Virus record (IMG/VR): IMGVR_UViG_3300032245_001763
Span: 64,001 to 102,043 of that record
DNA from: a virus
Taxonomy: Duplodnaviria > Heunggongvirae > Uroviricota > Caudoviricetes
DNA length: 38,043 bases
Strand: one strand, 5' to 3'
Both the position numbers and the translations under genes were made by a program. The notes beneath the pieces were generated by a model. That model was not told the origin of the DNA, ran no database searches, and saw only the letters and a list, made by a program, of their open reading frames with translations. Positions 19,758 through 28,610 of this stretch are shown here, piece by piece. The stretch's first letter is position 1. Every line of letters begins with the position of its first letter.

Positions 19758-20012
19758 ATGTTAGAAAAACAAATCAATGGCAAAACTGCAATTTACCCAG
19801 CAGACATTGCTAGAAAAAACAATTGGAAAGTTGGTGATATAATTGTTGGCGAAGAAGAAGGTAGATTGCCTTTAATTTGTGAAATTACAGCTATTGGAAA
19901 ACAAATGGTTTTAGGTTCTTTATCTAAAAATGGAGTAATTCAAAGTGATGAAGTTAGAATTCCATTAAATGATATTTTTATTAATTGGTCAAAAAAAGAA
20001 AATGTTTTTTAA
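19758..20012 (+). CDS. Hypothetical protein
   Basis: WKVGDIIVGEE...EITAIG. Start reassigned to ATG 19758. Confidence 0.55.
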   Translation: MLEKQINGKTAIYPADIARKNNWKVGDIIVGEEEGRLPLICEITAIGKQMVLGSLSKNGVIQSDEVRIPLNDIFINWSKKENVF

Positions 20013-20034
20013 ATTTAATTGAAAGGGTTTTAAA

Positions 20035-20739
20035 ATGTTAGATTACGATGATATTAAAGTTGTAGAAGATGTTGTGAATGACAACATGGGTTCTGGAAAA
20101 ATGTTCACTGCATACGATGTATCAATAAATGTTATTTCAAAATTGATATCTTCTGGAAAATACAATAAAGATGTGCATAAACACTCATTAATAAAGAGTG
20201 TTATTCATAATGTTGTGTCAGATTTGGCACCATTGTATTTTTATAAGAAAACACTTCATGTGGTGGGACAAAATGGTGAAAAAGCATTTGTTTATCATCA
20301 CACTAATAGTGATGTAAATACTTTTGTTCCTAAAGTTGGAAAAACAAAGATTGCATCAACTACAAGTGTTTCATCTCAATCGGTTTCAAGTATTTCATCT
20401 CAATCAACTACAAATGTTTGTTCTAATTCTGCTAGTTGTTCTAGTTCTAGTGGTTGTTCAGACGGTTGTAAAAAACAAGACTCCAGAGGAACTCTTTGTA
20501 TTCCAGCAACTTTATTGAGAGAAGTTGGAATATATGCTGGAAACACAGCATATGTTGTCAATGATGGTGGATCTATGGTTGTTTCAAAAAATGTTCCTAA
20601 TAAAGTTGCAGAGTATACTGTGGATTCTTATAATAACGTAAGAGTTACAAAAAGCGTATTGGATAAATTTTTTAGTAATACTCCAAGTGGATTTAAATTT
20701 ACAAAGTGTGCATCTGGAGTTGTTGTTAGTGCTGTTTAA
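20035..20739 (+). CDS. Protein with Ser-rich linker and C-terminal AbrB/MraZ-like swapped-hairpin domain(s)
   Basis: DSRGTLCIPATLLREVGI and TVDSYNNVRV resemble AbrB/MraZ repeats. Confidence 0.5.
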   Translation: MLDYDDIKVVEDVVNDNMGSGKMFTAYDVSINVISKLISSGKYNKDVHKHSLIKSVIHNVVSDLAPLYFYKKTLHVVGQNGEKAFVYHHTNSDVNTFVPKVGKTKIASTTSVSSQSVSSISSQSTTNVCSNSASCSSSSGCSDGCKKQDSRGTLCIPATLLREVGIYAGNTAYVVNDGGSMVVSKNVPNKVAEYTVDSYNNVRVTKSVLDKFFSNTPSGFKFTKCASGVVVSAV

Positions 20740-20751
20740 AGAAAGTTATAA

Positions 20752-21777
20752 ATGACAAGTTTAAGGTCTAAAATTACTGGTATGTTTTTTGGTGTTGCTA
20801 TTGGTGATGCATTAGGCAAACCAGTAGAAACTTTTTCTAAATCTAAAATAGATAAAACATTTGGAAGAATTACAAAATATGAATCTTCTAAACACCATAA
20901 ATGGTTTGATGGTGATGAAATTGGCACAATTACAGATGATACACAATTAACAATAGCTGTTGCAGAGTCGATAATTGAATCTAATGGTTTAAATATGGAT
21001 TCTATTGCAAAATGGCATGTTGATGCATTATCTGTAACAGATGCTGGTTGGGGTAATTCTACAAGATTGGCTGTAAAAAATCTTCAAAGTGGCATTAATT
21101 GGTCCAATTCTGCTATAAAGGGAGAAAATTATGGAGTTGGAAATGGGGTTGCGATGAAAGTTAGTCCCATTTCTGCTTATTATGTTATTAAATCTATTCA
21201 AAAAAATGATTATAATTTAATTATAGATAATGTTACCGATTTTCTAGTTAAGTTTAACAACATGACACATTTAAATCATGTTTCGTTAAAATCTACAGGA
21301 ACTATGTTTTCAGCATTTTCATATTGTCTTGCTGAAAATAATGGATTTAATCCGAATTTAATGAGCGAGAATTGTTTTTTATATTCATGTTTAAATCAGC
21401 ATAAATCAAATGATAATTATGAATTATCATTATCAAAAGATAATTTATCTTCAAGAATTTATGATTTATTTAAAAATTATAAAGATTATTCAGAATCAGA
21501 TATTATTGAAAAATATAATGGAGGTGGTTGTTACTGTTATGATAGCATTCCTTTTTCATTATATTTCTTCTTAAAAAATCCAAATTCTGTTGATTCTTTG
21601 TTTGAAGTGGTAAGTTCTGGTGGCGATACAGATTCGAATGGATCTATGGTTGGTGGTTTATTGGGTGCTTTAAATGGCGTGGAAATTTTCCCTCAATATT
21701 TAATTGATGGTCTTAAAGATAAAGAACAGATTTATTCTCTGGTTAATAGATTTTGTAGTGTGCTTGGAGTTGATTGA
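20752..21777 (+). CDS. ADP-ribosylglycohydrolase (DraG/ARH family)
   Basis: AIGDALG, TDDTQL, GNGVAMKVSP and GGDTDS. Confidence 0.9.
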   Translation: MTSLRSKITGMFFGVAIGDALGKPVETFSKSKIDKTFGRITKYESSKHHKWFDGDEIGTITDDTQLTIAVAESIIESNGLNMDSIAKWHVDALSVTDAGWGNSTRLAVKNLQSGINWSNSAIKGENYGVGNGVAMKVSPISAYYVIKSIQKNDYNLIIDNVTDFLVKFNNMTHLNHVSLKSTGTMFSAFSYCLAENNGFNPNLMSENCFLYSCLNQHKSNDNYELSLSKDNLSSRIYDLFKNYKDYSESDIIEKYNGGGCYCYDSIPFSLYFFLKNPNSVDSLFEVVSSGGDTDSNGSMVGGLLGALNGVEIFPQYLIDGLKDKEQIYSLVNRFCSVLGVD

Positions 21778-22193
21778 TGAAAAAGAAAGAAATTTTGTTT
21801 TTAGCTAATAAAACAAGAAATTTCATTATAACTAGATATAAATCTAGTGAAACTTTTTGTGCTATTTCATCATCTTTATTGAGTGTTGATTTACATGATG
21901 CTGAAATAAAACACGAAATTGTTGGAAACAATCGTCATGTTTTTTTAAAATTAAATGATTACATTTTAGATGTAACTGCTGATCAATTTGGATTTTATGA
22001 TCAAATAGAATTTTTTAAAATTTCTAATTTAAAAGAACACACGCCATATTATTGGAATATTGAGTTTGCATTCAAAGATTATAAAGAATTGGTTGAGTAT
22101 CAAAATATTAATTATTGGCCATTAGATCAAATTGTTAATCAGTATCATTTTAAGGCATATTATAAATTTGGCAACTGGAGAAAAGCATCTTGA
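21774..22193 (+). CDS. Hypothetical protein with possible papain/transglutaminase-like C-H-D triad
   Basis: FCAISS...RHVFL...LDVTADQF. Confidence 0.4.
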   Translation: MMKKKEILFLANKTRNFIITRYKSSETFCAISSSLLSVDLHDAEIKHEIVGNNRHVFLKLNDYILDVTADQFGFYDQIEFFKISNLKEHTPYYWNIEFAFKDYKELVEYQNINYWPLDQIVNQYHFKAYYKFGNWRKAS

Positions 22194-22744
22194 ATATATT
22201 TTTTTTACATGAAGATCCTGTTATTTCTGCTCGTTGGCTTATTGATCGTCATGTTGCTCATGGTAAAATGATTGTTGAATCATCTCAAATGTTGGCAAAT
22301 TGTTATTTACCTTCTCAATTAAACAGAGATGATTGTCCTAAAACTCAAAAAGGTGAATCTAGAACTTATGGTTATTATAATCATTGTTGTTCTAAGTGGA
22401 TTAGAGAATCTCTTTCCAATTTTAATTGGCTTTTAGAACATGCCCAAGAAATGGGTAGAGAAAGAATGTATAGAACTGGAAAAGATCATTTTTCTATTAA
22501 ATTTATTAATTGGTGTGCCAATAACACACCAAATATTAAAGATATAGGTTTGACAAAGCCAGCAATGGCGTTTAATAATTGCGATCAATTTAAAGATGAA
22601 AACAATATTACTCTTTCTTATAAAAAATTTTATGTTTTTGATAAACGATTTGATAAAAAAGGTAATAAAATGGATTTTTACACAAAAAGAGAACGTCCAA
22701 AATTTTGGGAGGAACTTTCTTATCTACTTGATAAAATTGCTTAA
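22190..22744 (+). CDS. Pyrimidine-dimer DNA glycosylase/endonuclease V (DenV)-like protein
   Basis: MNIFFL..DP..SA...DRHV..KMIVESSQML. TTG start with GGAG RBS. Confidence 0.7.
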   Translation: MNIFFLHEDPVISARWLIDRHVAHGKMIVESSQMLANCYLPSQLNRDDCPKTQKGESRTYGYYNHCCSKWIRESLSNFNWLLEHAQEMGRERMYRTGKDHFSIKFINWCANNTPNIKDIGLTKPAMAFNNCDQFKDENNITLSYKKFYVFDKRFDKKGNKMDFYTKRERPKFWEELSYLLDKIA

Positions 22745-22760
22745 TGTTAAAAATTAGTTA

Positions 22761-22808
22761 AAACTATTTATTGTTAAAATAATATGTTATTTTAACAATA
22801 AATAGTTT
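22761..22808. terminator. Perfect 22-bp inverted repeat with a 4-nt loop, probable terminator
   Basis: AAACTATTTATTGTTAAAATAA-TATG-TTATTTTAACAATAAATAGTTT in intergenic DNA. Confidence 0.55.
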
Positions 22809-22892
22809 ATCTTTTTAGCGGTTGTTGGCATCTTGATTTATTAAAATAATTTAAACCTATAAAAAGGATATTTTTTAATAAAAGGAGTTTTC

Positions 22893-23261
22893 ATGAGTCA
22901 ATTTACAACGCCATTAATAGGAGAATGGAATGATGAAATGACTATTTTTACGTTGAAAGAACCATTTGTTTATTATGTTGGCAAATTAAATTCTGGTGAG
23001 AAAATAGAAGTTCCTGCTGGATTCCCTACAGATTTTGCATCTGTTCCAAAAAAATTACATTGGTTATTGCCACCAACTGGTCGTTATGGTAAAGCTGCAG
23101 TTTTGCATGATTATTTGTATGAATATGGTATTGGCACTAAGGAAAAAGCAGATTATGTTTTTTATGAAGCAATGGGTGTTTTAAAAGTGCCTAATTTTAT
23201 TAGAAACATAATGTATTATGCTGTTAAAAAATTTGGTGTTGGAAACTTTAAAAGGAATTAA
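22893..23261 (+). CDS. DUF1353 domain protein
   Basis: VPAGFPTDFASVP, GKAAVLHDYLY and AD.VF.EAM. Confidence 0.8.
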   Translation: MSQFTTPLIGEWNDEMTIFTLKEPFVYYVGKLNSGEKIEVPAGFPTDFASVPKKLHWLLPPTGRYGKAAVLHDYLYEYGIGTKEKADYVFYEAMGVLKVPNFIRNIMYYAVKKFGVGNFKRN

Positions 23262-23265
23262 TATA

Positions 23266-23451
23266 ATGAAATTATCAAATAAAGATGTTCAAAACTTGCT
23301 TGAGTTGAGTGAAATTATGGGACTTTCTGTTTCCAAAACGATGCAGAAATCGTTACAATTGTTGTCTTGTTGTTTAAAACAAAGGAAAAATGGCAAAATT
23401 GCAATTGTTTCGTCGGAAAATAATATATTAAAAATGGTCAACTTTAACTAG
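23266..23451 (+). CDS. Small putative DNA-binding (CopG/RHH-like) protein
   Basis: AAGGA RBS before ATG 23266. LLELSEIMGLSVSKTMQKSL. Confidence 0.4.
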   Translation: MKLSNKDVQNLLELSEIMGLSVSKTMQKSLQLLSCCLKQRKNGKIAIVSSENNILKMVNFN

Positions 23452-23469
23452 TTTATATAGGAATATTTA

Positions 23470-23748
23470 ATGTTTGTTCCATTAATTGGAAATTGTTTTT
23501 GTTATGCGTATTTAATGAAAGCAATTTATGGTGGTCAAGTGTTTACTGTTGAAAATGAACCTTTTCATAAAGGCAGACAGGTTAAACACTATATGTTGAG
23601 AGACAAAAATGGTAAAGTGAGACATTTCAAAAGAATATTTAATTTTTTACCACCACCATTTTGTAATTTTATCTTTGTGGGTAAAATTGAAATTTCAGGT
23701 AATAAAAGAAATAAAAGGAGAAAAAATGAAGCCGTTCATGTAGGTTAA
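23470..23748 (+). CDS. Hypothetical protein
   Basis: GNCFCYA, basic C-terminus. The 3' end overlaps the RBS and start of the next gene. Confidence 0.55.
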   Translation: MFVPLIGNCFCYAYLMKAIYGGQVFTVENEPFHKGRQVKHYMLRDKNGKVRHFKRIFNFLPPPFCNFIFVGKIEISGNKRNKRRKNEAVHVG

Positions 23749-24076
23749 AAATTATGTTTATGTCGTAGTAAGGCAAGATTTGCCTTGTAATCAAGTTGTT
23801 GTGCAAACAGCACATGCAATTATGGAATTAGGAAGAAACAACAAGTTATCATTAGAGTTAGATCATCCTTATTTAGTTGTTTGTTCTTGTAAAGATGAAA
23901 AAGAATTAATTAAAATTTATAATGATATTATATCTAAAAATATAGAATGTTATAAATTTCATGAATCTGATATAGATGATCAATTAACAGCAATTGCTAC
24001 AGTTCCTGTTTTCCAGCAGGACAGAAAGCACTTCAAAAAGTTAAGATTACTTAATCTAGCTGGAGGTGCAACATGA
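23726..24076 (+). CDS. PTH2-like peptidyl-tRNA hydrolase with an in-frame TAG at codon 6 (23741-23743)
   Basis: AAAGGAG RBS, then ATG AAG CCG TTC ATG TAG GTT AAA AAT TAT GTT TAT GTC GTA GTA AGG CAA GAT TTG. YVVVRQDL...VVQTAHA...ESD...TAIA matches the PTH2 fold. Confidence 0.7.
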
Positions 24077-24642
24077 ATATAGAGCAATTAGCTATCGCAA
24101 TGTTACAATGCGAACAAACAAAAAATCAAACAGTATTTCAGCATGGAATTTCAGTTTTTAATTATTTCACTAATTTGGTTGAAAATGAAACTGATAATTG
24201 GAAAATTCCTTTGTGGTTTGAAGAAAACAAAAAAGAATTATTAGATAACATTTATGATTTAGAAACAATTAGTTTGTATACTAGGTTTCACGATTGTGGA
24301 AAACCATTTTGTAGAGAAGTAGATTCTGACGGAAAGGTTCATTTCCCCAACCATGCAGAAATTTCGAAAAAAATGTTTTTTGAAGCTACTAGCAATACAA
24401 TTGTTTCTAATTTAATTGGTTGGGATATGTGTCTTCACCAAGATTCTTCAATAGAAATACAAAAGAAATTAGAAAATGTTTGGTCGAAAAAAGATGCTTA
24501 TACATTACTTTTAGTTTCTTTATGTGAAATTCATAGTAATGCAAGTATGTTTGGTGGTATAGATAGCATTAGTTTCAAAAGTAAATGGAAGAAAATTGAT
24601 CAGAGAGGAAAACAAATAATAAAATATTATTTAAAATCATAA
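24073..24642 (+). CDS. HD-domain phosphohydrolase (similar to HD domains of CCA-adding/RNA end-healing enzymes)
   Basis: QHGISV, FHDCGKP and HFPNHA. ATGA-coupled to the PTH2-like gene. Confidence 0.75.
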   Translation: MNIEQLAIAMLQCEQTKNQTVFQHGISVFNYFTNLVENETDNWKIPLWFEENKKELLDNIYDLETISLYTRFHDCGKPFCREVDSDGKVHFPNHAEISKKMFFEATSNTIVSNLIGWDMCLHQDSSIEIQKKLENVWSKKDAYTLLLVSLCEIHSNASMFGGIDSISFKSKWKKIDQRGKQIIKYYLKS

Positions 24643-24649
24643 ATATGAT

Positions 24650-25516
24650 ATGAATTTTAAAGATTGGTATTTGTTTGAGAATTCAAACTTTAGACAAGTT
24701 TTATATCACGGAACTTGTCTAAAGTTTTTACCTTCTATTTTATCTCAAGGTTTAATTCCAAATATTAATAAAACTAATTGGAACCAAGACAGAGAATTGT
24801 CACTAACAAATAACGATCTAACTTCTTACGGTGGTGTTTATCTTGCAACTCAATTACGTTTTGCAAAATTTGCATCAACAAAATCTGCAAAAGAAAATAA
24901 AAGTGAGCCGATAATTGTTATTTGTTCTATAAATCAAAAAACAGCAATTTCAGATGAAGATTATGTTTTAATTCCAGCAATTTATGATCATAATTTATAT
25001 CAAAATTTAGTTTTATATAAATATTATTTGAACAAAAATAATAACGATTTAAAGGAATTTTATTTACAATCATATAATTCTTGGAAATCAAAATTGTTAA
25101 AATCTAATGATGTGACATCATTAAATGACAATTATTTAAAAAGAATTGATTTGGTATTAAAAGAATTGTTTTTTACAATTATTAAAAGAACTATTATTCT
25201 TAGTAAAAATGATAATTTAAATTATGATTGGTCAAGATTGTTTGATCAAAATGAGAAGATACCAGATTTACCTTCAAACATTCAAGAGGTAGAATTGATG
25301 TACAGGAAACTCCATGATCAATTATCTAAAATAATTAAAAGATTTGATTGGAGCATGAGGGTTATGTCCCCAATCAGATATTCAGGAACTAATAAAATTT
25401 TATCAATTGTTCAATTACTTGATGAGAACAATGTTAAAATTCATTATGGAACTATACCACAACAATTTATTGATGATTATAAAAATTTTATATCTGGAGA
25501 TATCAAATTTGTATAA
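24650..25516 (+). CDS. Putative ADP-ribosyltransferase-fold protein (H-Y type)
   Basis: LYHGT..FLPSILSQGL, GGVYLAT and DEDY. Confidence 0.55.
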   Translation: MNFKDWYLFENSNFRQVLYHGTCLKFLPSILSQGLIPNINKTNWNQDRELSLTNNDLTSYGGVYLATQLRFAKFASTKSAKENKSEPIIVICSINQKTAISDEDYVLIPAIYDHNLYQNLVLYKYYLNKNNNDLKEFYLQSYNSWKSKLLKSNDVTSLNDNYLKRIDLVLKELFFTIIKRTIILSKNDNLNYDWSRLFDQNEKIPDLPSNIQEVELMYRKLHDQLSKIIKRFDWSMRVMSPIRYSGTNKILSIVQLLDENNVKIHYGTIPQQFIDDYKNFISGDIKFV

Positions 25517-25532
25517 GTTTGATTGTACAATG
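25517..25532 (+). promoter_or_regulatory. Conserved 16-mer, copy 4
   Basis: Exact match, starting immediately after the upstream TAA. Confidence 0.75.
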
Positions 25533-25559
25533 TATGAATAACTTTTTTGTGGAGTTTTT

Positions 25560-26075
25560 ATGTTTCAAAAAGCAAATTATTCTTTTGAAGGTAAAACAAT
25601 AGTCGCAGAAACCGATGATGTTAAATATGTTTTGAACAGATTGCAAGATATAAGTAAAATAACTTTTTTAATTGACAATGTACAAGTTAAAGTTAAATTT
25701 AAAAGAAAAATGGCTTTAAAGATTAAAGAAGATCAAAAATGCATATCTTGTGGATTAGAAATTAATAAATTTTTGATAGGTAAATATTTGGAAGATACTG
25801 CTTGCTTAAATTTAGTTCCAGTAAATTTTGAAAATAATTTAACTATTTCATTTACTTTAGATCACAGAATACCAAAAGTCTGTGGAGGCAGTGATGATTT
25901 ATATAATTTGTGGCTAATGTGCTCGCAGTGCAATTTTGTTAAATCGCATTATAGAATTCCTTATTTGAATATTAAAGATATAAAAAAAGAATATTTTGAA
26001 ATTAAAAAAACTAATCATAAATTAGCAGGAGATTTCTTAGAGAAAGAAAGAAAAAAATACCTTTCATGGATATAA
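25560..26075 (+). CDS. HNH endonuclease
   Basis: CISC...LDHRIPKVCGGSDDLYNLWLMCSQCN. Confidence 0.8.
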   Translation: MFQKANYSFEGKTIVAETDDVKYVLNRLQDISKITFLIDNVQVKVKFKRKMALKIKEDQKCISCGLEINKFLIGKYLEDTACLNLVPVNFENNLTISFTLDHRIPKVCGGSDDLYNLWLMCSQCNFVKSHYRIPYLNIKDIKKEYFEIKKTNHKLAGDFLEKERKKYLSWI

Positions 26076-26094
26076 TATTATTTTGGAGTTTTTA

Positions 26095-26598
26095 ATGTTT
26101 AGATATGGTGAATTTCCAATTAACTTTGTTTTAGATAAAATAGAATATACTAATGTAAGAATTCCCATATCATTAAATGATAACACTTTATATGTAAGAA
26201 TGAATTCGCAAAGATATCATTTGTTTAAAAAGCAATTATTTTGTAATTCTTGTGGTCTAACTGGTGTTAAATTTTGTCTTGAAACAAGTGAAAAAAATAG
26301 TATTTATCCTCATTTTAATTTATATGCAGAAGAAAATGGAAATGAGGTCTTAATGACAAAAGATCACATTATTCCAAAATCAAAAGGTGGAAAAAACAAT
26401 CTTAAAAACTATGTTACAATGTGTTCTGTATGTAATTTTTTAAAAGACAATAAATTCATCACTTATGATCAAGTGTGTATTTTAAGAAAATTTTGGAACA
26501 CCAATGTTGTTCAAATGAGTAAAAAAGAGTTAATTTCTAATATAGAAACTTTAAGGTTGGATCTGGAACAATGCAATTTAAATCAACAGGAAAAATAA
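26095..26598 (+). CDS. HNH endonuclease (paralog of the upstream gene)
   Basis: CNSC...TKDHIIPKSKGGKNNLKNYVTMCSVCN. GGAG RBS before ATG 26095. Confidence 0.8.
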   Translation: MFRYGEFPINFVLDKIEYTNVRIPISLNDNTLYVRMNSQRYHLFKKQLFCNSCGLTGVKFCLETSEKNSIYPHFNLYAEENGNEVLMTKDHIIPKSKGGKNNLKNYVTMCSVCNFLKDNKFITYDQVCILRKFWNTNVVQMSKKELISNIETLRLDLEQCNLNQQEK

Positions 26599-26963
26599 AA
26601 TATTCACCTAAAACTCATAAGATTGATGATAAATGGTGGGTTGTTTTAGATTGTCAAGTAGATATAGGTAAATATTACAGAAATTTGTATGAATTATCTA
26701 CTTTCAAAACTGAAAAACTAAAAGTTCCATCATGGAAAGAACACATTACAATTGTGAGAAATGAAAAACCAGTTAACGAAGAAGTTTGGCGTGTGTACAA
26801 TGATAGAATTATAGAATTTGAATATAACACAATTCCCAGATGGAACGACCAATATTATTGGTTGGACGTAGAGTGTGATTTTTTTTATCAACTAAGAATT
26901 GAATTAGGTCTGCCTAAAGAACCAGAAATTCCATTTCATTTAACATTTGGAACTAAACTATGA
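26571..26963 (+). CDS. 2H phosphoesterase-like protein
   Basis: EHITIV and FHLTFG (two HxT motifs). Confidence 0.65.
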   Translation: MQFKSTGKIKYSPKTHKIDDKWWVVLDCQVDIGKYYRNLYELSTFKTEKLKVPSWKEHITIVRNEKPVNEEVWRVYNDRIIEFEYNTIPRWNDQYYWLDVECDFFYQLRIELGLPKEPEIPFHLTFGTKL

Positions 26964-27739
26964 TCATAAATTTTATTAGTATAATTTTGATTTGTGTAAC
27001 TTGCGTTATTGCTATCATCTATTTCTTTCAAGAATGCGAGCTTTGGGTATCTTCAGAACCAAAACTTGATGATAATAAGAAAGTTGATGAAAAACAGTCT
27101 AATGTGTCTGATGCGTCAAATGAACCATTTAGAAGACTTTCTGCTTTTAACAAAAAAATAGAAAGACTTCAGGAAGAGTTAAAGTTAGATAAAAAAAATC
27201 AACCAGATGATTCTCTTAACGAACTTTTGGTTATTAAAGAATTAATTGATTTTGAGTATACCAATAAATCTATAACCAAAAAAATATATACTGACTTTTT
27301 TAATGCCTTTGATGAAATACTATCTTTAATTGATGAATTTACAGATTTGGAAAAGATTATCAAAAAAAATAAAATAAAAGAAAAAGATTTAAAGACTTCA
27401 CATCAAGTTGTTGAAGAAAAATTCTCTAAGGAAATCAAAAAAGATTTTATTAAAAAACGAGAAGAAAATTTAGCTTTAATAGAAAATTTAACAAAAAGAT
27501 TGAGTGAATGTGTAAAGTCACAACTGTATGCATGCAATAAAGAAAACTTAAAAGAAGTGGAAAACTCCATTTCTCAATTTACAAATTCGTACGAAATACA
27601 TAAAAGAACAGAACTTGAATTGAACAAGTTTCAAAATGAAGTTGATGCTGAAGTAAAATCAGAAGAAAAAATATACCCAATTGATTTATCTTTAAATGTA
27701 GTTAAATTTGATGAAATTGCTAGAAAATTAAAAAGTTAA
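26960..27739 (+). CDS. Membrane-anchored coiled-coil protein
   Basis: N-terminal hydrophobic helix and an E/K-rich helical body. Confidence 0.55.
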   Translation: MIINFISIILICVTCVIAIIYFFQECELWVSSEPKLDDNKKVDEKQSNVSDASNEPFRRLSAFNKKIERLQEELKLDKKNQPDDSLNELLVIKELIDFEYTNKSITKKIYTDFFNAFDEILSLIDEFTDLEKIIKKNKIKEKDLKTSHQVVEEKFSKEIKKDFIKKREENLALIENLTKRLSECVKSQLYACNKENLKEVENSISQFTNSYEIHKRTELELNKFQNEVDAEVKSEEKIYPIDLSLNVVKFDEIARKLKS

Positions 27740-27758
27740 TTAGAAAGGTTTGTGTGTT

Positions 27759-28610
27759 ATGATTAGATTATTTAAGAGTATTGTAAAGTTTTTTTCCACA
27801 TTGTTATCTGGTCTTTCTGGTCTTATAACCAATAAGAATAAAAAGATGTTGAGAAACAAACATGTGATTGAAGAAAAAATCAATTCTATTATTGAAAAGA
27901 AAGAAAAAGAACTTAAAGAATATGTAGAGCTTGCTGGTGAGAATATTAAAATTCTTACAGAAAAAGAACAAGATTGTAAAAATTTGCAGATAGAAATTGA
28001 CAAATTGTTAACATTGAAAGAATATTCTTTAAATGAAGCTAAAAAAGTAGCCAATGAATTACTTGCAAAAAGTCAAGATCCAACTCAAAATAATGAATAT
28101 ATTAAGTATAAAGAAAATTACATTAAGGTTGAAAATTCTTTAAAAGAAAAAGAAGAAAGTTTGTCAAAAGTAAAAATTCTTGTTAAAGATTATTCTGAAA
28201 GAAGAGCTAAATATAAAGCTGGCTCTATAAGCAAAAGACAAGAAATAGAAGATTTGAAAACAAAGAAAACTAGTTTGAAAAATGAATTGCAAAATGCAAT
28301 TGAAGAACGTAGAATTTATGAAATGGAATCTGGAATTACATCATCATCTTATGATGAAGATCTAAAGGAACTTGAAAGTACAATTAAGAGTTATACAGCC
28401 GAAGCATCAGCTTTAAAAGATATTTCTGATGACGCAAATTCTAGTGCCATTTTATATTCTAAAATGGTTGAATCTTCTGTTAATAATTCAATTGGAAGTC
28501 AATTTGATTCTCTAATTTTAGATAAACCAAGTGAAGTTGTTTATCCACTTTTGATTCCTGCAACAGAAGATGGTTTGTTATTAGAAAATAAGAAAGAAAA
28601 TAATCAATGA
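27759..28610 (+). CDS. PspA/IM30-like coiled-coil protein
   Basis: Long helical hairpin after an amphipathic N-terminus (LFKSIVKFFSTLLSG). EA.A..D pattern near the C-terminus. Confidence 0.45.
   Translation: MIRLFKSIVKFFSTLLSGLSGLITNKNKKMLRNKHVIEEKINSIIEKKEKELKEYVELAGENIKILTEKEQDCKNLQIEIDKLLTLKEYSLNEAKKVANELLAKSQDPTQNNEYIKYKENYIKVENSLKEKEESLSKVKILVKDYSERRAKYKAGSISKRQEIEDLKTKKTSLKNELQNAIEERRIYEMESGITSSSYDEDLKELESTIKSYTAEASALKDISDDANSSAILYSKMVESSVNNSIGSQFDSLILDKPSEVVYPLLIPATEDGLLLENKKENNQ

Follow-up and report, generated by a model that had tools for sequence, protein, structure and literature searches.

The stretch of DNA analysed here (the window) comprises 38,043 nucleotides, corresponds to positions 64,001 to 102,043 of the IMG/VR virus record IMGVR_UViG_3300032245_001763, a 102-kb contig of a virus of the Caudoviricetes, and carries a gene for a peptidyl-tRNA hydrolase 2 (PTH2)-like protein that is interrupted by an early in-frame amber codon and linked to a gene for an HD-domain phosphohydrolase. 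This arrangement had been described in an earlier reading of the sequence alone (the sequence-only reading), and all of its elements were found again on the plus strand. A Shine-Dalgarno motif AAAGGAG (23714-23720) lies 5 nt upstream of an ATG at 23726, which opens the short leader ATG AAG CCG TTC ATG (MKPFM) and is followed by TAG at 23741-23743 (leader with stop, 23726-23743) with G as the next base. In the same frame the sequence continues with GTT AAA AAT TAT GTT TAT GTC GTA GTA AGG CAA GAT TTG... for 110 codons up to a TGA at 24074-24076 (open reading frame (ORF) 23744-24076), and the ATG of the HD gene (24073-24642, 189 residues) overlaps this stop in an ATGA at 24073-24076. The ORF after the TAG has no start of its own ahead of the first strand of the core; the first ATG, GTG or TTG is the TTG at 23780, codon 13, which had been used as start in the ORF list.

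The PTH2 identity proposed from the first strand is borne out by profile and fold comparison, which both place the protein encoded after the TAG in the PTH2 fold family. Pfam PF01981 was matched with 27.3 bits (cut-off 23) over profile positions 3-114 of 115, and a profile of PDB entry 2zv3 with an E value of 2.5e-6. Structure prediction from an alignment of 60 relatives led to a model with a predicted local distance difference test (pLDDT) value of 95 and template modelling (TM) scores of 0.74 to 2zv3, 0.76 to 3erj and 0.74-0.76 to 1q7s, the Pth2 structures of M. jannaschii, A. fulgidus and human respectively, with the fold covered over its full length. As in Pth2 (PF01981; PDB 2zv3, 3erj, 1q7s, 1xty), an N-terminal R-x-D-L strand and a Q-x-x-H-A helix are present; Y6, H24 and E74 are invariant in the PTH2-like family, and R10, D12, Q21 and T82 nearly so. 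Strand 1 of the model is formed by residues 3-10 after the TAG, and a product started at the TTG would be devoid of this strand and of R10 and D12, in agreement with the sequence-only reading.

Judged from the sequences, the TAG is a programmed feature and not an assembly error, since an independent ENA scaffold of 530,789 bp (L027; ERZ28594238, KRAE22-1 scaffold_3) carries leader and TAG identical to those of the window; the shortened product of 98 residues on this scaffold is 99% identical to that of the window. As the gene order on the scaffold wraps around relative to the 102-kb contig, the phage genome is taken to measure ~531 kb and is probably circular or permuted, with the contig representing about one fifth of it. 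A tblastn search against GenBank phages detected the PTH2-like domain in 37 records, mainly of jumbo phages, and under the match many of these records have either no annotated coding sequence or only a shortened one. Reading upstream in frame in 14 representative GenBank records and in nine metagenomic relatives, found via the PTH2-like or the HD protein, led to 20 distinct gated loci, in which an ATG (GTG in one), one to six further sense codons and a stop stand directly 5' of the module. A conserved TAG behind a Shine-Dalgarno-backed ATG in homologues linked to HD genes had been named beforehand as support for programmed readthrough, and the leader stop turned out to be TAG in 19 of the 20 loci and TAA in the remaining one, with no case of TGA. 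The TAA leader (MTTSGFT-TAA, L037:9618-9641) belongs to a 213-kb contig (JGI Ga0502760) with no tRNA within 10 kb. The stop is followed by A in 14 loci, by G in six and never by a pyrimidine; among the 27 TAGs at the ends of ORFs on the 102-kb contig, by contrast, T comes next in 13. Carriers of gated loci are cultured phages of Yersinia, Serratia, Pectobacterium, Xanthomonas, Stenotrophomonas, Acinetobacter, Ralstonia, Tenacibaculum and Salmonella as well as metagenomic giant phages. The leaders vary in sequence (MKPFM, MKEFL, MLDL, MSGFT, MSH, MTH, MAQ, MT, ML, MK, MR and others; MKEFL-TAG, MLDL-TAG and MSGFT-TAG in the clade of the window), and a purine tract resembling a Shine-Dalgarno motif stands at the corresponding position in the majority of the 20 loci.

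Comparison of the 27 codons after the TAG in four related phages gave proportions of non-synonymous differences (pN) of 0.04-0.06 versus synonymous ones (pS) of 0.31-0.79, from which this stretch is taken to be translated and under purifying selection. No copy of the gene contains further stops or frameshifts. Seven loci have no ATG, GTG or TTG within 40 codons past the stop, and in fHe-Yen9-03 and Serratia phage BF the whole ORF is free of these codons. A nonsense mutation in a decaying gene, or a read error in a single genome, had been kept as an alternative by the sequence-only reading, and the missing or shortened annotation in many GenBank records would fit with it; given the identical TAG in an independent assembly, the same gate in 20 loci, the selection past the TAG and the otherwise intact frames, we regard this explanation as effectively refuted. 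The claim that full-length PTH2-fold protein would be made only by readthrough of the TAG is supported by the conserved gate.

Of the 23 loci compared, 18 have the HD partner next to the PTH2-like domain or fused with it, and PHROG 14850 is itself a PTH2-like/HD fusion. Pfam HD was matched by the partner with an E value of 0.058 only, below the cut-off. The predicted model (pLDDT 97) is all-helical and matches HD domains, and the metal ligands H24, H73-D74, H94, D118 and H122 are invariant among 45 homologues. The best matches by profile and fold are the HD domains of CC-/A-adding tRNA nucleotidyltransferases (PDB 3wfo-3wfs; UniProt O67911, Q72K91, Q9RV39), a weak similarity (E 4e-4 to 3e-3, TM ~0.6, 14-16% identity) in which the HD metal-ligand motifs are kept; unlike these enzymes, the partner is a stand-alone protein of 189 residues with no nucleotidyltransferase head. 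In pT24 a PTH2-HD fusion is preceded by MK-TAG, and in CM1, XacN1 and Xoo-sp13 fusions of reverse order (HD-PTH2) start with MK-TAG, MK-TAG and MKK-TAG respectively (ATG-AAG-TAG at L005:943-951 and L006:946-954, ATG-AAG-AAG-TAG at L013:943-954). Because fusions of both orders have the leader TAG, the gate goes with the 5' end of the module irrespective of the domain order. The unfused HD gene of fHe-Yen9-03, BF, CBB and XbC2 contains a second conserved in-frame TAG at codon 47 (L001:1962-1964; L002, L003 and L004:1956-1958) in the context SELD-x-G-TAG-GD with G as next base, and it is due to this TAG that the gene is annotated in GenBank as two small fragments. The suggestion that the HD enzyme also depends on readthrough therefore holds in part: HD is fused behind the gate in four phages and has its own TAG in four others. 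In the window, a dependence of the HD gene on the gate through translational coupling is tentative, as the gene has its own strong Shine-Dalgarno motif (GGAGGTG, 24062-24068, plus strand) in the 3'-terminal part of the PTH2-like ORF. In a close relative the PTH2-like and HD genes are separated by an inserted TnpB/Cas12f-like (OrfB_IS605) gene (L035:8774-9928) and hence do not overlap as they do in the window.

A reader of the amber codon may be provided by the phages themselves. When tRNAs were located with Rfam RF00005 and anticodons read with ARAGORN in ten phage genomes, a tRNA with the anticodon CUA, tRNA(CUA), was present in fHe-Yen9-03, CBB, ME3, RsoM2USA, Arash, pT24, a 595-kb phage and CM1. 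In ME3 an annotated tRNA with anticodon CTA lies ~450 bp upstream of the gene, and in pT24 tRNA(CUA) is one of no more than three or four tRNAs. Two metagenomic relatives have tRNA(CUA) ~60 nt (L031) and 2.1 kb (L036) upstream. RaK2 and Hallingskeid, in which the PTH2-like gene is ungated, starts normally and has no HD partner next to it, have no tRNA(CUA) in their genomes. Of the gated phages amenable to this check, 11 of 11 thus encode tRNA(CUA), versus 0 of 2 ungated ones, a count in which not all lineages are independent. The suppressor tRNAs have canonical CUCUAAA loops, and their acceptor stems and discriminator bases differ, so that the residue inserted at the TAG is probably not conserved among the phages, which fits with a gate sited in a variable leader. 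XacN1, a jumbo phage with standard code, has two tRNA(CUA) genes with 'no identifiable target' according to its authors (Yoshikawa et al., 2018; PMC5852040). Its ORF364, an HD-PTH2 fusion with ATG-AAG-TAG in frame upstream, is a candidate target of these orphan suppressor tRNAs. In Salmonella phage Arash the tRNA at L011:2807-2881 (record 49176-49247) is annotated as tRNA-Phe, and its loop CUCUAAA gives the anticodon CUA; CM1 has a tRNA(UUA) besides tRNA(CUA), and thus readers of ochre codons also exist in such phages.

We therefore favour, as the likely though not certain explanation, an amber gate that depends on a suppressor tRNA and controls a tRNA-end-processing module. Ribosomes would initiate at the ATG at 23726 and synthesise MKPFM. 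At the UAG, release factor 1 (RF1) would terminate translation, leaving only the pentapeptide, or a UAG-reading tRNA would insert an amino acid, after which translation would go on into the PTH2-fold ester hydrolase, whose stop overlaps the start of the HD phosphohydrolase. The reader would be the phage-encoded tRNA(CUA) in the relatives and is presumed to lie here in the 78% of the ~531-kb genome beyond the searched part, and the output of the module would depend on how much charged suppressor tRNA is available relative to RF1. A short variable leader would be a suitable site for such a gate, as any inserted residue would be tolerated and aborted products would be tiny. PTH2 enzymes cleave the ester at A76. 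From this chemistry, the HD domain resembling that of CCA enzymes and the surrounding genes for RNA repair and nicotinamide adenine dinucleotide (NAD) metabolism, we infer that the module may act at RNA ends, most plausibly at the 3' ends of tRNAs.

Several observations weigh against this explanation. The search for a tRNA(CUA), which the sequence-only reading had suggested for the full genome, was positive in the relatives as described, but neither tRNA(CUA) nor tRNA(UUA) was detected in the ~119 kb of the ~531-kb genome that were searched (the 102-kb contig with 8.6 kb upstream and 8.5 kb downstream of it, which includes the stretch from -65 kb to +22.8 kb relative to the gene). In most relatives, tRNA(CUA) lies within 13 kb, unlike in the searched part of this phage. 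As 27 of the 170 ORFs on the contig (~16%) end in TAG, a strong suppressor would extend their products. One locus has a TAA leader stop in place of TAG. L031 and L032 have ATG or GTG directly after the TAG, and XacN1 and Xoo-sp13 an ATG four codons past it, so that some copies of the protein could form without readthrough. With regard to the enzyme, scores were far below the cut-offs for the Pth2 equivalog TIGR00283 (23.4 versus 82 bits) and for NF003314 (15.6 versus 126), and the canonical GKGK and DAG-x-T stretches of Pth2 appear to be missing in the profile alignment to 2zv3, where the GKGK loop is two residues shorter and D-A-G-H-T aligns with E-P-D and a four-residue gap. The substrate of the PTH2-like protein may differ from that of Pth2.

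The 102-kb contig carries 31 tRNAs, none of them for Leu, Ser, Tyr or Phe, and its flanks (8.6 kb before, 8.5 kb after) carry no tRNA at all. At a low threshold ARAGORN proposed a 'tRNA-Pyl(cta)' at G000:3101-3172, which was rejected as decoder since it is without U33, has a weak anticodon stem and has its 'CTA' inside a helix. The corresponding element at G000:3090-3171 (= L033) is tRNA-like (Infernal 22 bits), with a perfect acceptor stem of 7 bp and a T arm and a single 8-bp hairpin in place of D and anticodon arms, and does not qualify as a decoder either; it begins 5 nt after an odd tRNA. This tRNA at G000:3012-3085 and another at G000:7534-7604 (= L033) are good tRNAs by Infernal (38 and 51 bits) with abnormal anticodon loops, to which ARAGORN assigns no anticodon; the loop of the former has 6 nt according to ARAGORN and 8 nt according to Infernal. 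A further tRNA-like RNA at G000:~46866-46937 has no CUA.

That no suppressor tRNA was detected in the 119 kb searched would also be expected if the gate senses RF1 without a dedicated tRNA, with near-cognate host tRNAs reading the UAG whenever RF1 is depleted, inhibited or outcompeted and termination stress thus inducing the module, which takes up the RF1 failure named in the sequence-only reading beside a suppressor tRNA. UAG is the RF1-specific stop and TAG was found in 19 of 20 loci, and with any suppressor the output would still depend on competition with RF1. Yet tRNA(CUA) is present in every checkable gated relative, often adjoining the gene, and missing in the ungated ones, while 78% of this genome lies outside the tRNA search; a purine after UAG is said, after Bossi and Miller, to favour suppression by tRNA, which also counts against RF1 alone. 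RF1 shortage as the agent is thus unlikely in our view, and a phage tRNA(CUA) is the better candidate. The purpose put forward in the sequence-only reading, translation rescue with sensing of drop-off from the minigene, is a conjecture.

The starts close behind the TAG in L031 and L032 would also suit a regulatory mini-ORF, after which the PTH2-like protein is made by reinitiation, non-canonical initiation or frameshifting with no readthrough involved. Further details are in line with this, namely an ATT or ATA next to the TAG in five loci, an out-of-frame ATG or TTG and an A-run just past the TAG in L001-L003, and, in the window, an upstream ORF of 92 residues in a different frame (23470-23748, plus strand), whose TAA at 23746-23748 overlaps the first codons after the TAG and which thus ends 5 nt beyond it. 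In the window, however, none of the codons ATG, GTG, TTG, ATT, ATA and CTG occurs in frame from the TAG to the core strand. Like most lineages, it has neither the out-of-frame start nor the slippery run, and a +1 slip at GGT-TAA cannot re-pair. Neither the +1 frameshift from the overlapping 92-residue ORF nor the -1 slip from the out-of-frame ATG or TTG of L001-L003 is conserved, and both were rejected. As a mini-ORF would moreover leave the preference for TAG, the co-occurrence of tRNA(CUA) and the TAG at codon 47 of the HD gene unexplained, we consider this route very unlikely. The 92-residue ORF itself had no match in family searches and is 83% identical to its copy in L035.

Recoding of TAG is frequent in giant phages that encode suppressor tRNAs (10.1101/2021.08.26.457843; PMC13037316), and a genome-wide reassignment, as known for the late genes of code 15 phages, had to be considered for the gated gene as well. 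On the 102-kb contig TAG terminates the ORFs counted above, most of which have a back-up stop 0-23 codons on, and no gene besides the PTH2-like one is split by TAG; for XacN1, the authors likewise reported no other readthrough targets (PMC5852040). Global recoding is thereby effectively excluded, as the sequence-only reading had held, and its count of five other genes ending in TAG was about right, with six such ORFs in the window according to a crude ORF set. Scanning the contig for a Shine-Dalgarno motif, an ATG, one to six codons, a stop and at least 80 open codons led to the PTH2-like gene and one more Shine-Dalgarno-backed TAG, in which case the gene downstream starts from an ATG of its own; the configuration is thus rare by chance. 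Two candidates were dismissed: ATG-CAA-TAG at G000:17567 stands four codons before the real ATG of a neighbouring gene, which is not amber-split, and G000:3197-4309 consists of a 65-residue ORF followed by an SPFH/band-7 gene with its own start.

If the suppressor-dependent gate is correct, the PTH2-like/HD pair could act on the 3' ends of tRNAs including that of the tRNA(CUA) needed for its own translation, which would close a circuit; we put this forward as a doubtful extension. Equally speculative is the chemistry it would imply, namely deacylation or removal of blocking groups, with the phage tRNA reporting the status or charging of 3' ends and the module regulating itself. Such a circuit would be a tRNA-based homeostat, possibly directed against toxins of the host by which tRNA ends are blocked or acylated, and would account for the persistence of 'orphan' suppressor tRNAs in jumbo phages with the standard code.

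In code 15 phages (crAss-like, Lak and other gut phages), TAG is read as Gln via suppressor tRNAs (10.1101/2021.08.26.457843; PMC10879173). The gated phages resemble these in the presumed use of a phage tRNA(CUA) for in-frame TAG (in the relatives) in hosts with standard code, and the purpose proposed there is timing or regulation of translation. In code 15 phages dozens of late genes contain TAG, which is lost as terminator, whereas here one module is gated, the TAG has a fixed place in a leader of 2-7 codons and still serves as terminator, and the inserted residue is apparently irrelevant. In prfB, the gene for release factor 2, ribosomes pass a UGA by shifting frame by +1 at codon 26, and this UGA is a stop that release factor 2 itself recognises. 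An early stop in a gene of translation-factor type thus ties synthesis to termination versus alternative decoding in both cases; unlike in prfB, the frame of the gated ORF does not change at the stop, which is UAG and probably read by a tRNA, and feedback by the product would be part of the speculative circuit only. The bar minigenes of phage lambda are stand-alone ORFs of two codons that are toxic when Pth is limiting. They share with the leader the very short ORF, the possible release of short peptidyl-tRNA and the link to peptidyl-tRNA hydrolase, but the mini-ORF described here is in frame with the hydrolase gene and serves as its start. The PTH2 of jumbo phages has been listed among RNA-repair genes and proposed to free peptidyl-tRNA after tRNA damage, with no mention of an in-frame TAG or a suppressor tRNA (Iyer et al., 2021; PMC7824862). 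In the literature we found no published description of an amber-gated PTH2-like/HD module; papers on phage recoding treat the reassignment of many genes.

A conserved target consisting of a single module would give a purpose to the orphan amber suppressor tRNAs, with no target known, that are found in many standard-code jumbo phages, and gate and tRNA(CUA) together would form a natural minimal switch of one tRNA and one gene. The gate also affects annotation, as gene finders miss the gene in fHe-Yen9-03, BF and RsoM2USA and shorten it in CBB, XbC2, Arash, pT24 and the window. The linkage of a PTH2-fold hydrolase with an HD protein resembling CCA enzymes points to an uncharacterised activity at tRNA 3' ends in phage infection. 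As several carriers of the gate are in culture, the idea is directly testable.

Searches of the region for further features gave little: DNA similarity search of 22800-25600 against GenBank phages gave no match, IMG/VR searches with the PTH2-like alignment and with the single protein nothing usable, Rfam at a permissive threshold over 20000-28000 no RNA close to the gene, and PADLOC no meaningful match. The third gene of the local operon (24650-25516, plus strand) encodes 288 residues with a weak ADP-ribosyltransferase/Tpt1(KptA)-like N-terminus in Pfam and NCBIfam (PARP, E 4.5e-4; PTS_2-RNA, E 0.034; RNA 2'-phosphotransferase of NCBIfam, E 0.0056 and far under its cut-off), and its position is maintained in the relatives L028 and L035. 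Directly 3' of the module, two tandem HNH endonuclease-like genes follow at 25560-26598, a placement that is kept in the same two relatives. The module lies within a dense RNA-repair and NAD/ADP-ribose island (13568-36300), also found in L027 and L059, with genes for RNA ligases, three DUF7666 proteins, a WGR-PARP, an ADP-ribosylglycohydrolase, a PNK (AAA_33 + PNK3P) and an R2K ATP-grasp protein besides the Tpt1-like gene at 24650-25516.

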